Shown piece after piece: positions 36,442 to 46,233 of a stretch of 64,000 nt of DNA. The number at the start of each line of letters is the position of its first letter. Position 1 is the first letter of the stretch. Source of the stretch: Polyangiales bacterium (lineage in GTDB: Bacteria; Myxococcota_A; Polyangia; Polyangiales; Polyangiaceae); the NCBI GenBank assembly GCA_038231275.1, contig JBBRLQ010000003.1:236340-300339 (forward strand), read 5' to 3'. The notes below the pieces were generated by a model, which did no database searches, had not been told where the DNA came from, and was given only the letters and a program-made list of their open reading frames with translations. The translations under genes and the position numbers were made by a program.

Positions 36442-40560
<4,119 letters not shown>

Positions 40561-40597: not shown

Positions 40598-41524
40598 TTA
40601 CTTGCGCCGTGCGCTTCGGCGACGCGCGGAGAAGAGGCCGAGCGCGACGAGGAGCGATGCGCCCGAGACGCCCGCCGTCGACTCCCTCGACGAGATCGCG
40701 CAGCCGTTCTTCTGGCCTCCCGCGCCGAACGAGCCGGGGTCGGCGCCCGACGAGCCGCCGTCGACGTCGCCGTTCGATCCGCCGCCCGACGAGCCCGCCG
40801 AGCCCGACGTGCCTCCGCTGGTTCCGCCGCTCGTGCCTCCGCTGGTTCCGCCGCTCGTGCCTCCGCTCGCGCTCGCGTCGCCGCCGCTGCTGGTGCCGCC
40901 GTCGATGGTGCTGGCGCCGTGCTTGAGCACGAGATCGATGCACTGGTGGTAGATGTCCTCGACGCCGACGCCCGGCGTCGGATCGTAGGGACCGTGGAAC
41001 GCGTCGTCCTCCATGACCTGGATGATCTGGAGCGTGCAATTCGTGCACTCTACATTCGGCAGCGTGACGTCCCACGAGTAGGTCGGCGAGCCGCTCGGCA
41101 TGTGCGGGTTCAGGTTGTCCATGCCCTTCAGCACGGCGGTCGTGTTGTAGAAGTCGGACGTCCCACAATGATCGCCGGGGCCGTCCGGGCACGCGCGGTT
41201 CGGATCGATCGGGAGGATCGACTGCGGCTCCTTGAAACCGTCGTCGCCGTCGTTGTCGAACGCGATGCGGAAGTAGCTCGGGTGCGCGACCGTCTCGACG
41301 AGCTTGATGGTGATCTTCTGACCGGGCTCGTACGTGTACACGTGGGCGCCGCGTACGCCGTTGGTGCGTCCGCAGGGGCCCGCCTTGATGCTCGACGCGG
41401 AGTCCCCGTAGCGCGAAAGATGCGTGCCCGCGGCCTCGAGGCTGATGTGCGCGGCGGCGGGCGCTGCGACGAAGGCGAGGGCGAGCGAGGGGCCGGCGAA
41501 GGCGGCAAGGAAGCGGAACTTCAT
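40598..41524 (-). CDS. Secreted MYXO-CTERM protein with candidate His-brace (LPMO/AA10-like) domain
   Basis: 309 aa from MKFRFLAAFAGPSLALAFVAAPAAA|HISLE (AxA cleavage would expose N-terminal His); motifs IKLVETVAHPSYFRIAF and EDIYHQCIDLVL resemble remembered AA10 (CBP21: WKLTARH…WRYFITK; AFYQAIDVNL); (GGTS)n linker; C-terminal GC…hydrophobic…RRRSARRK = MYXO-CTERM. Confidence 0.75.
   Translation of the reverse strand: MKFRFLAAFAGPSLALAFVAAPAAAHISLEAAGTHLSRYGDSASSIKAGPCGRTNGVRGAHVYTYEPGQKITIKLVETVAHPSYFRIAFDNDGDDGFKEPQSILPIDPNRACPDGPGDHCGTSDFYNTTAVLKGMDNLNPHMPSGSPTYSWDVTLPNVECTNCTLQIIQVMEDDAFHGPYDPTPGVGVEDIYHQCIDLVLKHGASTIDGGTSSGGDASASGGTSGGTSGGTSGGTSGGTSGSAGSSGGGSNGDVDGGSSGADPGSFGAGGQKNGCAISSRESTAGVSGASLLVALGLFSARRRSARRK
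40795..40875. repeat. 24-nt tandem repeat (gtgcctccgctggttccgccgctc)x2.5 coding (GGTS)n
   Basis: seen directly. Confidence 0.75.
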
Positions 41525-41703
41525 GCCCTTCGCGTACCACGGGGGCGGAAGCGCGGCACGCCGCGGCGTCGCGCCTGAGGGGAAACGCGCTTTGCCGTCG
41601 AGGCCGAGCGCATCCGTTGCGCGCGGCATTTTCCGCGCGCGGGGCTCGTCAACGGCGCGCGAAGGTGCGATGACTTGCGGGCATTTCACGAAAGGCTCGC
41701 ACC

Positions 41704-42096
41704 ATGACCATCCGCCACGCCGCCGTCTGGATCGATCACAACGAGGCGCGCGTCTTCGACGTCGCCGACGCCTCGTTCGACGTCGCGCACGTGAACGCGC
41801 CGCACTCGCACGTGCACCGCCACCCCAAGGTGACCCACGATCACGAGCACCCCGCCGACGCGCAGAAGTTCTTCCACGAGGTCGCGCACGCGCTCGCCAC
41901 CGCCGAAGAGATCTTGGTCCTCGGACCGTCGACCGCGAAGCTCGAGCTCATCAAGCACATCCACAAGCACGACCACGCGCTCGAGCCGAAGATTGTCGGC
42001 GTGGAGACGGTCGACCACCCGACGGACGGCCAGATCGCCGCGTACGCGCGGAAGTACTTCCACGCGGCGGATCGCATGAAGGGCACCGTCCGCTAA
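41704..42096 (+). CDS. His-rich small conserved hypothetical protein
   Basis: 130 aa; ~18 His (HxHxH runs: HSHVHRH, HDHEH, HIHKHDH); strong GC3; GAAAGG upstream. Confidence 0.7.
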   Translation: MTIRHAAVWIDHNEARVFDVADASFDVAHVNAPHSHVHRHPKVTHDHEHPADAQKFFHEVAHALATAEEILVLGPSTAKLELIKHIHKHDHALEPKIVGVETVDHPTDGQIAAYARKYFHAADRMKGTVR

Positions 42097-42153: not shown

Positions 42154-43116
42154 GTGCATTTCGAGATCCACGCGGATTGCTCGGCGTGCCGCGTGGAGGG
42201 GGCCGTCACCGAGACGTGGGACACCGACGGCGCATGCGGTCGCCTCGGCGTCCCGCTGTCCGCGCGGTGCCGCATGTGCGGCGCGGCGAGCGAGGGGCGT
42301 GCGAGCGCGGACGCGATGTTCCCGTCGGGGTGTCCGGCGTGCGGCGCGGATCTCGACGACGCGTGCCGAGACGCGCACCGCTGTCCGATGTGCGGCGCCG
42401 GTGCCCAGCTCCACGCCGCTTCGGCAGGACGCGCCTTCGCGTCGCGCGCCGAGCTCGAGGCCGCGCTCGACGCGTGGGCGCGCGACGAGGGGCTGTCGTC
42501 GTCGCGTGAGCTCATCGAGTCAGCGTTCGTTCTCGGGACTGTCGAGGCCGTGCACGCGGCCCTCGAACGGGGCGAAAGAGTCGAGACCACCTTCGACGTC
42601 GCCGATCTCCTGTTCGGCTCGGGCCAGTCGGGCGGCGGAGGCGAGACGATCGCGATCGATCGCGAAGAGAAGCCGCCCAATACGCAGCGCATGCGCCCGC
42701 CTCCATCGATCCGTCGCTATGGAGGAGCGTACGACGAGCTCCTCGCCCTCGCGTCGGTCGCCGCCGCCGACGGCGAAGCCAACGCGCAAGATCTCGGCGC
42801 CCTCGAGCGCGCCGCGCAGACCCGCGGCCTCCAGCCGTTGCCGCTGTCGGAGGTGCGCGTGCGCCGTCCCGGCGAGATCGATCCGCCGCCCACCCTCGTC
42901 GATCGCGAACGCCTCCTCGAGGAGATGTTCCAGATGGCGTGGGCCGACGGCGAGATGGACCCGAGCGAGCTCAAGGTCATCCGCGAGTTCTCGCGCGTGT
43001 GGGGCATCGACCCCGAACGCCTCGAGGAGTGGACCAAGATGTACACGTTCGCGGACACCGGCCGCATCGAGCGGTGGTTCCGTCGCGTCGGTCAGATGAT
43101 TTTCCCGGAGAGATGA
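42154..43116 (+). CDS. TerB-like domain protein with N-terminal Cys-cluster (zinc-ribbon) region
   Basis: 320 aa from GTG; 4 CxxC pairs in N-terminal 90 aa; C-terminal TerB/DjlA-N-like helical domain (…LLEEMFQMAWADGEMDPSELKVIREFSRVWGIDPERL…). Confidence 0.7.
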   Translation: MHFEIHADCSACRVEGAVTETWDTDGACGRLGVPLSARCRMCGAASEGRASADAMFPSGCPACGADLDDACRDAHRCPMCGAGAQLHAASAGRAFASRAELEAALDAWARDEGLSSSRELIESAFVLGTVEAVHAALERGERVETTFDVADLLFGSGQSGGGGETIAIDREEKPPNTQRMRPPPSIRRYGGAYDELLALASVAAADGEANAQDLGALERAAQTRGLQPLPLSEVRVRRPGEIDPPPTLVDRERLLEEMFQMAWADGEMDPSELKVIREFSRVWGIDPERLEEWTKMYTFADTGRIERWFRRVGQMIFPER

Positions 43117-44099
43117 GCATGAACGTTCCCGTCGACGCCCCCGCACCGCAGGCGCAGCAAGGACAGAAGGAACGCATCGCCAAGGTGGGCGTGCAGTTTC
43201 GCGCGGTCATGCAGAACGTCGAGCGCGTCATTCTCGGCAAGAGCGACGTCATCGCGCGCGTCCTCGCGGCCATGTGCGCCGGCGGCCACGTGCTCCTCCT
43301 CGACGTGCCTGGCGTCGGCAAGACGATGCTCGCGCGCTCGATCGCCGCGTCGATCCACTGTTCGTTCAAGCGCATCCAGTTCACGCCCGATCTGCTCCCG
43401 CTCGACATCACCGGCACCAACGTCTTCAACCTCCGCAAGAAGGCGTTCGAGTTCGTGCCAGGCCCCGTCTTCGCGAACCTGCTCCTCGCCGACGAGATCA
43501 ACCGCGCGACACCGAAGACGCAGGCCGCGCTGCTCGAGGTCATGGCCGAGGCGCAGGTCACCGTCGACGGCACGACGCACATGATGCCGCCGCCGTTCCT
43601 CGTCATCGCGACGATGAACCCGCTCGAGCATGACGGCACCTTCCCGCTCCCCGCCGCGCAGCTCGATCGGTTCAGCGTGCGCGTCACGATGGGCTTCCCG
43701 CCGCCGGACGCCGAGGTGCGCATGCTCGACGTGCACCTGGGGAAGGACGTCGCGATCTCGGCGCTCCAGCCGGTGCTCGGCGCCGAGGAGTTCCTCTCGT
43801 GGCAGCGCCTTTTGCCGACGATTTACGTCGCGGAGGCCGTGAAACGCTACTCGGTCAACGTGATGAGCGCGATGCGCACGGACTCCGGGTGCCTCACGCC
43901 GCCGAGCCCGCGCGCGACGCTGATGTGGCTGCGCATGGGGATGGCGATGGCGATGCTGCAGGGCCGCGATCACGTCCTCCCCGGCGATTTGCAGCAGTCC
44001 GCGGTGGACGTGCTCGCGCACCGCATCGTCGTCTCGGGCCAGCGCAGCGCGTCGGCGTACGTCGACCACGTCGTCCGCAGCGTCCCCGTGGATCGGTGA
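43113..44099 (+). CDS. MoxR-family AAA+ ATPase
   Basis: 328 aa; ATGA overlap; Walker A GVPGVGKT, Walker B LLADEINRA, …LVIATMNPLE…, …LDRF…. Confidence 0.9.
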   Translation: MSMNVPVDAPAPQAQQGQKERIAKVGVQFRAVMQNVERVILGKSDVIARVLAAMCAGGHVLLLDVPGVGKTMLARSIAASIHCSFKRIQFTPDLLPLDITGTNVFNLRKKAFEFVPGPVFANLLLADEINRATPKTQAALLEVMAEAQVTVDGTTHMMPPPFLVIATMNPLEHDGTFPLPAAQLDRFSVRVTMGFPPPDAEVRMLDVHLGKDVAISALQPVLGAEEFLSWQRLLPTIYVAEAVKRYSVNVMSAMRTDSGCLTPPSPRATLMWLRMGMAMAMLQGRDHVLPGDLQQSAVDVLAHRIVVSGQRSASAYVDHVVRSVPVDR

Positions 44100-44103
44100 T
44101 CGG

Positions 44104-46233
44104 ATGATGAGCGCGCGGCCGCTCCGCCACCAGCCGACCTCCGCGACGAGCAAAGAGACCGTCGCGATCCTGTGGTTTTTCCTCGGATGGACCGGCGCGC
44201 ACCGGATGATCCTCGGCAACGTCGCGGTCGGCGTCGCGTACGGCGCGCTCACCTTCTTGACGTGCGGCTTCGGCGGCATCGTCGGCTGGCTCGACGGCTT
44301 CCTCCTCCTCTTGCGATCGCCGAAGGACCAGTACGGACTGCCGGTGGTGTGGTCGTGGCGCAAGGGGAAACTCTTCATCGATCCGCTCGAGGAAGGCACC
44401 TACGAGCCGGCCGAGTCGCGCGCGCGCATCCTCATGCACTTCGGGCTCCTCTTCTTGATGCCCTACCTCGTGGTGAGCGGCGGCCTCACGCTCTTCGAGA
44501 CGAGCGAGATCAAGAACACGCTCCCGAAGTTCGCGTTCTTCTCGGGCCTCCTCCTCGTGCCGCTCTTCCTCGTGCAGCTCATCGGAACGATCCGCAAGGC
44601 GCGCATGCAGATCGACATGCTCCGTAAGGCGGGCGCGCTCACCAAGCGCACGCGCCTCGACGCGATCGCGCGGGCGGCGTCGATCGTCACGCCGCGCGGC
44701 GGGCTCGTGCTCGTCACCGGACTGGCGTTCTTGGTGCTTTCCTTGGCGTACAAATGGGCGGAGCTCGGCGTCATCGCGGTGCTCGCGCTGAGCGCGTTCT
44801 ACCTCGTGACGTCGACGGCGGCGCTCCTCAGCTCGTTCGTGGTCAAGCGCTTCTCGAACAACCTCCTCGAGCGCGGCGCGGTCGTCCATCGGCGCTTCGA
44901 GCCGGGCGTCACGCGCTCGGGCGCCGCCGCCGAGGATCGGCTGGATTTGCGCGGCGTCCCCGTGCCGCCCGGATTTTTCCTGACGCTCCACGGCATCCTC
45001 CCGCCGCGATTGTCGACCGAGGTGCGTCACGTCGTTCCGCCGAAGGCGCGTGACGAGCGCCTCTCCCTCGTCCAGCAACTGAGGCGCACGCCGCGCGGAA
45101 CGTACGAGGCGCCCGCGCTGCGCGTGGCGTTCACGGATCTCCTCGGCCTCACGAGCGCGCCGGTCGCGTCGCTCGCCACGGCGCGCCTCCGCGTTCTGCC
45201 GTCGATGCGCCCGGCCGAAGTCGTCCCGCCGCCGCCGTCGTCGACCGAAGAGCCGGACATCCTGTCGCGTCCTCACCGCTTCCCGACGGAAGATCTCTTT
45301 CGCTTTCGCGAGTACGTCTCTGGCGACGACACGCGACGCATCCATTGGGGCCTGTCGATGCGCGCGCGCAAGATGATCGTGAAGCAGCCGGACAGCCGCG
45401 AGACGTCGGCGCGTCGCGTGGTCGTCGCGCTCGACACGTGGGTGCCTCCCGATTGGCTCGATCACACCGCCGTCATCGACGACGCGCTCGACTCGCTCGT
45501 CGAGGCGTGGCTCGCGATCGGGCAACGCCTCGTGGAGCAAGGCGAGAAAGTGACGCTGCTCTTGGTCGCGCGCGGCGACGACGGCCTCATTCGTCACGAG
45601 CTCGTCTCGTGCAGCACCGCCAACCACGCGCACTGGCTCGACGCTGGCGCGCGCGCGGAGTGGCAAGCGACACTGCCGATCGAGAACGTCCTCGACTACG
45701 GCGTGCAACAGGGAAATTCCGGCGGAAAGGAAGAGACCGCCTTCGACAACGCGATCGTCGTCACGATGCGCCTGGCGCCGCCGCAGATGCCGCGCGTGGC
45801 GCGCGAGACGACCTGGATCTGGTACGACCCCGACGACGCGCTCGGCGCGCCGCCACGCACCGCGTTCCAGACCTGGCTCGACGACGACGACACCGGTCGC
45901 AAGCCCACTGCGGGTGAGCTGTGGAAGCGCATGTTCTTTCTTCCGTACGCCGTCGGCGCCGAAGAGAACGGGCTCCTCGCGCGCATGAGCCGCCTCGAGC
46001 GTCGCCTCGAAGATCGCGCGCACCGCATCGCGCTGCGGCGCATGGCCGTCATGAGCGGACGGCGCGCGCTGCAAGGCCTCCTCGCGCTGCCCGACGCGGT
46101 CTACAAGCTCGAGGTCGTCGAGGGGCGTCACCGCATGGTCGGCATGAAGGGCTCGAGCCGCGCCGCGCGAACGGTCGATCGGCACCAAGGGCAGCGCGCC
46201 GCGCCGGCCGGACGCGCGGGGGCGTGGCCGTGA
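44104..46233 (+). CDS. TM2-domain::DUF58 fusion protein
   Basis: 709 aa; N-terminal TM2 signature (…FLGWTGAHRMILGNVAVGVAYGALTFLTCGFGGIVGWLDGF…), further TMs, DUF58 core (…FREYVSGDDTRRIHWGLSMRARKMIVKQ…). Confidence 0.85.
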   Translation: MMSARPLRHQPTSATSKETVAILWFFLGWTGAHRMILGNVAVGVAYGALTFLTCGFGGIVGWLDGFLLLLRSPKDQYGLPVVWSWRKGKLFIDPLEEGTYEPAESRARILMHFGLLFLMPYLVVSGGLTLFETSEIKNTLPKFAFFSGLLLVPLFLVQLIGTIRKARMQIDMLRKAGALTKRTRLDAIARAASIVTPRGGLVLVTGLAFLVLSLAYKWAELGVIAVLALSAFYLVTSTAALLSSFVVKRFSNNLLERGAVVHRRFEPGVTRSGAAAEDRLDLRGVPVPPGFFLTLHGILPPRLSTEVRHVVPPKARDERLSLVQQLRRTPRGTYEAPALRVAFTDLLGLTSAPVASLATARLRVLPSMRPAEVVPPPPSSTEEPDILSRPHRFPTEDLFRFREYVSGDDTRRIHWGLSMRARKMIVKQPDSRETSARRVVVALDTWVPPDWLDHTAVIDDALDSLVEAWLAIGQRLVEQGEKVTLLLVARGDDGLIRHELVSCSTANHAHWLDAGARAEWQATLPIENVLDYGVQQGNSGGKEETAFDNAIVVTMRLAPPQMPRVARETTWIWYDPDDALGAPPRTAFQTWLDDDDTGRKPTAGELWKRMFFLPYAVGAEENGLLARMSRLERRLEDRAHRIALRRMAVMSGRRALQGLLALPDAVYKLEVVEGRHRMVGMKGSSRAARTVDRHQGQRAAPAGRAGAWP

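Follow-up and report, generated by a model that had tools for sequence, protein, structure and literature searches.

Does a Polyangiales bacterium display a copper protein of the lytic polysaccharide monooxygenase (LPMO) kind on its cell surface? The question is raised by a gene at 40598-41524, on the minus strand of a 64,000-nucleotide stretch of contig JBBRLQ010000003.1 (hereafter the window). An original prediction, made from the letters alone, had described its product as a secreted protein with a MYXO-CTERM anchor and a candidate histidine-brace copper site resembling that of the AA10 LPMOs. We lean towards reading the gene product as a member of the LPMO superfamily with a single copper in a histidine brace, which belongs to family NF043005, has AA15 as its nearest characterised relative and acts as a surface-tethered polysaccharide oxidiser. 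All coordinates below are window positions, those of the protein's own features lie on the minus strand, and residues are numbered in the precursor.

The open reading frame (ORF) was confirmed as a real gene. It is an intact frame of 308 codons, with an ATG at 41524 and a stop codon at 40598-40600, and its third-position GC (GC3) of 0.90 is similar to that of the coding neighbours in this DNA of about 70% GC. The numerous ORFs that overlap it in other frames are by-products of that composition. An alternative GTG start at 41689 would add 55 residues; because GC3 in this extension was only 0.75, and because relatives carry about 24 residues ahead of the histidine described below, the start was placed at the ATG at 41524. 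No promoter or terminator was detected in a scan, and no paralogue was found within the 64-kb window.

The complete coding sequence (308 residues plus stop, 40598..41524) matched the NCBIfam model NF043005 with 121.2 bits (cut-off 75), and the same model was matched by all 49 aligned relatives. The model bears the title 'SCE4755 family polysaccharide monooxygenase-like protein' and the type hypothetical equivalog, and the SCE4755 name already stands on several NCBI records from metagenome-assembled genomes (MAGs) of Polyangia. The suggestion of a new family thus held as regards divergence from AA10, but the family is not an unnamed one. A literature search returned no paper mentioning sce4755 or the NF043005 family, and a solved structure was likewise not found. 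Relatives were numerous. A word-indexed search gave 302, with a top identity of 82%, and when 1.84 billion representative proteins were searched exhaustively with HMMER, 1123 clusters (50% identity) passed E<=1e-3 and 441 of these also passed E<=1e-10. When one genome per species was scanned, 47 homologous loci were obtained, from Polyangia and Myxococcales MAGs, Nannocystis, Oligoflexus, Silvanigrellaceae, Pseudoxanthomonas, Pseudohongiella and other Pseudomonadales, and one Pirellulaceae MAG. Two paralogues per genome were present in some cases (L005/L010; L023/L032), as is common for LPMO enzymes.

The residues expected of a histidine brace were found to be strongly conserved in this family. 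The precursor starts with a predicted Sec signal peptide (residues 1-25, MKFRFLAAFAGPSLALAFVAAPAAA; 41450..41524) that has K2 and R4 in its n-region, a hydrophobic core and an AAA cleavage motif; neither a lipobox cysteine nor a twin arginine was seen on inspection of its sequence. Cleavage after AAA, as originally proposed, would leave His26 (41447..41449) as mature His1, the predicted bidentate copper ligand of the brace. Among the 246 relatives with full N-termini, the residue at -1 to this histidine was Ala in 237 and that at -3 was Ala in 217, so the AxA/His context is conserved family-wide, and a simple hydrophobic-core test found a signal-peptide-like prefix ahead of the histidine in 240. 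Conservation was further counted over the ungapped positions among 268 relatives. His26, which did not vary in the three alignments A1, A2 and A3, was retained in 253/256, His81 (mature His56; 41282..41284), the predicted second brace histidine, in 262/263, and Tyr192 (40949..40951), the predicted axial tyrosine, in every one of 251. His81 lies in the motif E77-x-x-x-H-P-S-Y-F-R within the string IKLVETVAHPSYFRIAF, and Tyr192 in the string EDIYHQCIDLVL; all motif strings quoted in the original prediction were present in the protein. Equally well kept were Glu77 (259/262), Gln166 (255/255) and Asp190 (248/251), the last being the residue at the second-sphere position two before the tyrosine (Tyr-2; 40955-40957). 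Judged from the alignments, retention of the cleavage context together with the His/His/Tyr set is far beyond chance.

Six conserved cysteines (51, 112, 120, 160, 163 and 195) lie in the LPMO-like β-sandwich domain, which spans residues 26-205 (180 residues, beginning HISLE; 40910..41449). Four of them were nearly invariant (Cys51 in 256/257, Cys160 in 257/258, Cys163 in 255/259 and Cys195 in 251/251), and the Cys112/Cys120 pair was missing, jointly with His177, in about one third of the 268 relatives. Two forms of the family can be told apart in this way: a long one with the Cys112-Cys120 loop and His177, to which the window protein belongs, and a short one without both (e.g. P0137 and P0166), which makes up 73 of the 118 complete representatives at 50% identity. 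The NF043005 model has 146 positions, compared with about 180 residues in the domain of the window protein, and appears to represent the shorter subgroup.

Comparison with solved structures placed the family closest to AA15. A search of the PDB with the single sequence returned only low-complexity linker noise and no AA10 chain. A family profile built from 49 sequences reached the AA15 enzyme of Thermobia domestica (TdAA15A, 5MSZ) with E=1.6e-4, and a profile of 119 sequences reached 5MSZ with 5.4e-4 and AoAA13 (4OPB) with 7.3e-4; the best AA10 chain found with the latter profile, ScLPMO10C (4OY7), was weak (E=1.3). In the profile alignments His81 fell on His91 of 5MSZ, His91 of 4OPB and chain His110 of 4OY7, and Tyr192 was paired with Tyr184 in 5MSZ and with Tyr224 in 4OPB. 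The two motifs that had been singled out as the second-histidine and axial-tyrosine strands thus align with the brace histidine and axial tyrosine of solved LPMOs. In TdAA15A the copper is coordinated by His1 and His91, with Tyr184 axial and Ala89 close by (Sabbadin et al. 2018, PMC5823890). When the family profile was aligned by hhalign to residues 72-191 of 5MSZ, 104 columns were matched at 26% identity with a probability of 93.7% and E=2e-7. On this sequence evidence AA15 is the nearest characterised relative of the NF043005 family, at about 21-26% identity.

The likeness to AA15 extends beyond His1, the second histidine and the axial tyrosine. Both proteins have a carboxylate at Tyr-2 (Glu182 in AA15, Asp190 in the window protein; Gln222 occupies this position in AA13), and both have a V-x-C-x-N-C-x-L-Q motif and a cysteine three residues past the tyrosine. 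A lipid anchor, of the glycosylphosphatidylinositol (GPI) type, is also found on some AA15 members (PMC8615602). There are differences as well. AA15 has ten cysteines (five disulfides) whereas six are conserved in the window family, and the CxxC pair and the one after the tyrosine are all that align between the two; Ala89 is replaced by Val/Ile and Glu182 by Asp; and the window family is bacterial, whereas AA15 has been reported from eukaryotes and Phycodnaviridae. The segment between His1 and the second histidine comprises 55 residues in the window protein, against 90 in TdAA15A, 90 in AoAA13 and 109 in ScLPMO10C, which bears out the earlier remark on a short spacing, made there in comparison with CBP21.

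A structure model pointed in the same direction. The mature domain was modelled with AlphaFold2 together with 49 relatives, giving a predicted local distance difference test score (pLDDT) of 90.9 and a predicted template modelling score (pTM) of 0.89. The predicted fold is an LPMO β-sandwich, in which Tyr192 opens the last strand and His81 stands immediately ahead of a strand. Comparison of such a model with known folds had been put forward as a check on the original prediction, and in the Foldseek search of the PDB 5MSZ ranked first (E=1.5e-4), followed by AA10, AA9, AA11 and AA13 entries; the top matches in the PDB and viral sets were concordant. In the fold comparison 5MSZ (AA15) scored 11.0, with 133 residues aligned at 21% identity, LaX325 (6IBH) scored 10.8, 4OPB (AA13) and 4MAI (AA11) scored 9.1 each, and several AA10 entries scored 7.0-8.7.

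We also looked at how the domain is joined to its C-terminal end. The domain is followed by a low-complexity Gly/Ser/Thr linker of 68 residues (206-273; 40706..40909) and by a MYXO-CTERM-like sorting signal (residues 274-308; 40601..40705) that consists of G274-C275, the hydrophobic helix GVSGASLLVALGLFSA and the cluster RRRSARRK. The whole tail reads GCAISSRESTAGVSGASLLVALGLFSARRRSARRK, and the string GCAISS...LLVALGLFSARRRSARRK is located in it. The tripartite layout of MYXO-CTERM, as known from TraA, and the myxosortase pathway have been described (PMC11980579), and the window protein, likewise Sec-exported and from a Myxococcota-type genome, shares with it the Cys motif, the hydrophobic helix and the Arg-rich end, all at its very C-terminus. 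It differs in having a single cysteine (N-G-C-A) instead of the common GCGC motif. The isolated tail scored 11.3 bits with TIGR03901 (MYXO-CTERM) against a cut-off of 20, and the full protein gave no match. The description of this end as a textbook MYXO-CTERM was therefore right about the layout of cysteine, helix and arginine cluster and too strong in the word 'textbook'. Among orthologues 20/49 matched TIGR03901 at E<=0.01, and the Gly-Cys was at least 90% conserved. The arrangement of cysteine, helix and Arg-rich end was found in 203 of the 246 relatives with full N-termini, and another 17 of the 246 end directly after the domain. A few relatives have dockerin-like repeats plus PEP-CTERM-like ends; planctomycete relatives, the Pirellulaceae homologue among them, have a PEP-CTERM-like end, and an anchor is missing in the homologues from Gammaproteobacteria and Oligoflexia. 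Anchored LPMOs are known from other families, with GPI anchors in AA9, AA14, AA15 and AA16 and LPXTG in AA10 (PMC8615602).

The linkers of relatives reach about 180 residues, with about 28% Gly, and no folded domain was seen on inspection of the long tails, which are low-complexity linkers. In the window gene a perfect tandem repeat of 24 bp x 2.5 at 40808-40867 encodes (GGTS)n within the linker, which suggests a recent change in tether length. A minority of relatives (P0181, P0167, P0135 and P0189; P0244, P0137 and P0162) have Met-rich or His/Asp/Glu-rich linkers, the Met-rich ones with up to 16% Met and PEMM/PEMN repeats. Of 224 linkers counted, 8 had at least 6% Met and 9 at least 5% His, the window linker being in neither group. 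Such linkers could bind copper.

From these results the following mechanism can be proposed. The precursor would be exported by Sec, and signal peptidase I would cut after Ala25 to free His26 as residue 1, a step backed by the sequence and its conservation. The 180-residue β-sandwich would fold, probably with three disulfides. By homology, His1 would bind the copper through both its amino group and its side chain and His81 would be the further ligand, with Tyr192 as the axial residue and Asp190 in the second sphere. Following the MYXO-CTERM pathway (PMC11980579), Cys275 would be lipidated, a myxosortase would cut off the helix, and type II secretion would deliver the protein to the surface, where a flexible tether of about 70 residues would hold it. 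The reduced copper site would then use H2O2 or O2 to oxidise polysaccharide near the cell. Analogy with AA15 suggests chitin or cellulose as the substrate; prey cell wall or the bacterium's own exopolysaccharide is speculation. Copper binding, lipidation, surface display, oxidative activity and substrate are in this scheme what we infer from the features described above.

Could the protein instead be an ordinary chitin- or cellulose-active AA10 enzyme whose sequence has merely diverged? Like AA10 (Pfam PF03067; the examples compared were ScLPMO10C, 4OY7, and CBP21, 2BEN) it is bacterial, Sec-secreted and has an N-terminal histidine. It shares the second-histidine motif H-P-G/S-x-F-R with ScLPMO10C (H-P-G-x-F-R), AA10 structures appeared in both fold searches, and LPMO_10 was matched with E=2.6e-4 by the window protein and also by 28 of the 49 relatives. 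The score of the window protein, however, was 22.1 bits, under the gathering threshold of 23, and covered only model positions 82-182 of 183, that is, the C-terminal half. The PDB profile search gave E=1.3 for the best AA10 chain against about 1e-4 for AA15 and AA13, the L2 region of AA10 is largely missing because the segment from His1 to the second histidine is only 55 residues long, and the cysteine pattern (CxxC, and a cysteine after the tyrosine) is that of AA15. The axial residue, too, is Tyr in the window protein, whereas many AA10s have an axial Phe. We therefore consider an ordinary AA10 enzyme improbable, and the resemblance to AA10 that had been predicted stands as homology to LPMOs, but not with AA10 as the closest family; a divergent histidine-brace family outside canonical AA10, the other option then offered, agrees with these results. 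Still less probable, and in our view hardly to be expected, is a surface β-sandwich adhesin or structural protein without a metal site, in which the His/His/Tyr set would serve folding only. It is exactly the three brace positions that do not vary in over 250 sequences, and they fall residue by residue on the copper-site positions of the solved AA15 and AA13 enzymes (His91/Tyr184 and His91/Tyr224), His81 also on the brace histidine of an AA10.

A more serious rival is a non-catalytic copper binder at the surface, like fungal X325/Bim1, in which the brace and an extra carboxylate would bind Cu(II) so that it can be taken up, buffered or handed over, with no cleavage of polysaccharide. We regard this as rather unlikely, though far from fanciful. 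The window protein has the architecture of X325/Bim1 (a signal peptide, an LPMO-like domain, a disordered linker and a lipid anchor at the C-terminus), and both X325, in all its members (PMC8615602), and Bim1 (PMC10952591) are GPI-anchored, the window protein differing from them (LaX325, 6IBH/6IBJ) in its bacterial MYXO-CTERM-type signal. One of the 49 relatives matched the Pfam model BIM1-like_dom (PF20238) at 3.6e-4, the window protein itself giving no match; the conserved carboxylates Glu77, Asp173 and Asp190 lie near the predicted ligands in sequence; the tails inspected hold no fused carbohydrate-binding module; and the few Met-rich (8/224) or His-rich (9/224) linkers would fit such a role. 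On the other side, the family profiles reached AA15 and AA13 enzymes but did not match any chain of X325 at E<=10. In X325 the fourth copper coordination site is filled by an Asp on a Gly-rich loop, and no equivalent of it was identified in the window protein. Bim1 works with the importer Ctr1, and bacterial brace proteins of copper transport are often found in copper gene clusters, but no copper-transport or other copper gene recurred next to the gene in the 47 genomes, and no neighbour linked it to copper import. The gammaproteobacterial and Oligoflexia members, being without an anchor, would moreover be released. An active, surface-tethered LPMO is favoured because the sequence links lead to the enzyme families AA15 and AA13, because a carboxylate stands at Tyr-2 and some genomes have two paralogues, and because no copper-trafficking genes lie alongside. 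Several findings nevertheless weigh against an active enzyme of this kind. The Tyr-2 residue is Asp190 and not the Glu or Gln of AA15 and AA13, and other conserved carboxylates (Glu77, Asp173) could complete the copper site with a fourth ligand, as happens in X325. A domain with a disordered linker and a lipid anchor is also the layout of all X325 members (PMC8615602), and the tail is under the curated MYXO-CTERM cut-off. Inspection of the tails of the 268 relatives, made without a domain-model scan, revealed no fusion to a carbohydrate-binding module or glycoside hydrolase, and no conserved carbohydrate-active enzyme neighbour was found at the 47 loci.

The genes around the locus were also examined. 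The LPMO-like gene is positioned 38 bp upstream of a gene for a DUF2339 membrane protein (36442-40560, minus strand; 1372 residues; DUF2339 191 bits), in whose N-terminal region a tandem repeat of 6 bp x 25 (40161-40312) gives rise to a long stretch of (Thr-Pro)n. On the other side lies a divergent ORF of 130 residues (41704-42096, plus strand; GC3 0.95), which is His-rich (HSHVHRHPKVTHDHEHP, HIHKHDH) and has no obvious signal peptide; it gave no Pfam or NCBIfam match and was not found near the homologous loci. It is followed at 42154-46233 by a run of genes that all lie on the plus strand. They encode a 320-residue protein, Cys-rich at its N-terminus and TerB-like in its C-terminal domain, an AAA+ ATPase of the MoxR type (AAA_3 with 202 bits) and a TM2 + DUF58-like protein of 709 residues. 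Clusters of MoxR and DUF58 genes occur in other genomes, and the run resembles them. None of these neighbours (DUF2339, the His-rich ORF, TerB-like, MoxR, TM2 + DUF58) recurred at the 47 homologous loci, and we therefore draw no functional link. All-against-all clustering of the neighbours at these loci found nothing common to more than 5, the best being a generic α/β hydrolase.

Two pairings seen elsewhere were considered and rejected. A gene for a GMC oxidoreductase of 838 residues (L048:8444-10960; also L049 and L050) lies convergent to the LPMO-like gene, about 30 bp from its stop, on the contigs of the closest relative (P0001, 82% identity). GMC oxidoreductases form CAZy family AA3, whose members provide the electrons or H2O2 for LPMOs; as a redox partner the protein was rejected, since neither the window nor any other locus has it. 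Directly upstream of the homologue in Pseudoxanthomonas sp. J31 there is a gene for an Rce1-like CPBP intramembrane protease of the myxosortase superfamily (L025:5083-5775). Dedicated pairs of sorting enzyme and client have been described for JDVT-CTERM proteins. The protease was rejected in this role, since the J31 homologue has no C-terminal signal and the pairing occurs at no other locus.

Taken together, the NF043005 family appears to be an uncharacterised one within the LPMO kind, falling short of the available AA10 model and showing only remote homology to AA15. The value of the finding is tempered because NCBI curators had already flagged the family as 'polysaccharide monooxygenase-like'. 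A bolder reading, which we offer tentatively and think possible more than probable, is that NF043005 represents a new bacterial LPMO family at the CAZy level, made up of active copper oxidases, with the AA15 enzymes of eukaryotes and viruses as its sister group. Its Myxococcota members would be tethered to the outer surface, and those of Oligoflexia and some Gammaproteobacteria would be released; they would serve to breach, by oxidation, the cell-wall glycans of prey or competitors (chitin, glucan, possibly peptidoglycan) or to remodel the bacterium's own matrix. The newly characterised LPMO families AA13 to AA17 have each been linked to particular substrates or biological roles, and a bacterial sequence nearer to animal AA15 than to bacterial AA10 bears on the origin of AA15. 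The family stands where LPMO enzymes border on copper binders of the LPMO-like type, X325/Bim1 among them. Its domain is small, is expressible in bacteria and has Asp in the second sphere, which would make it useful for testing why some histidine braces are catalytic. Members from Myxococcota are almost always fused to a surface-sorting signal, and their chemistry would therefore take place at the cell surface and not in the bulk medium.

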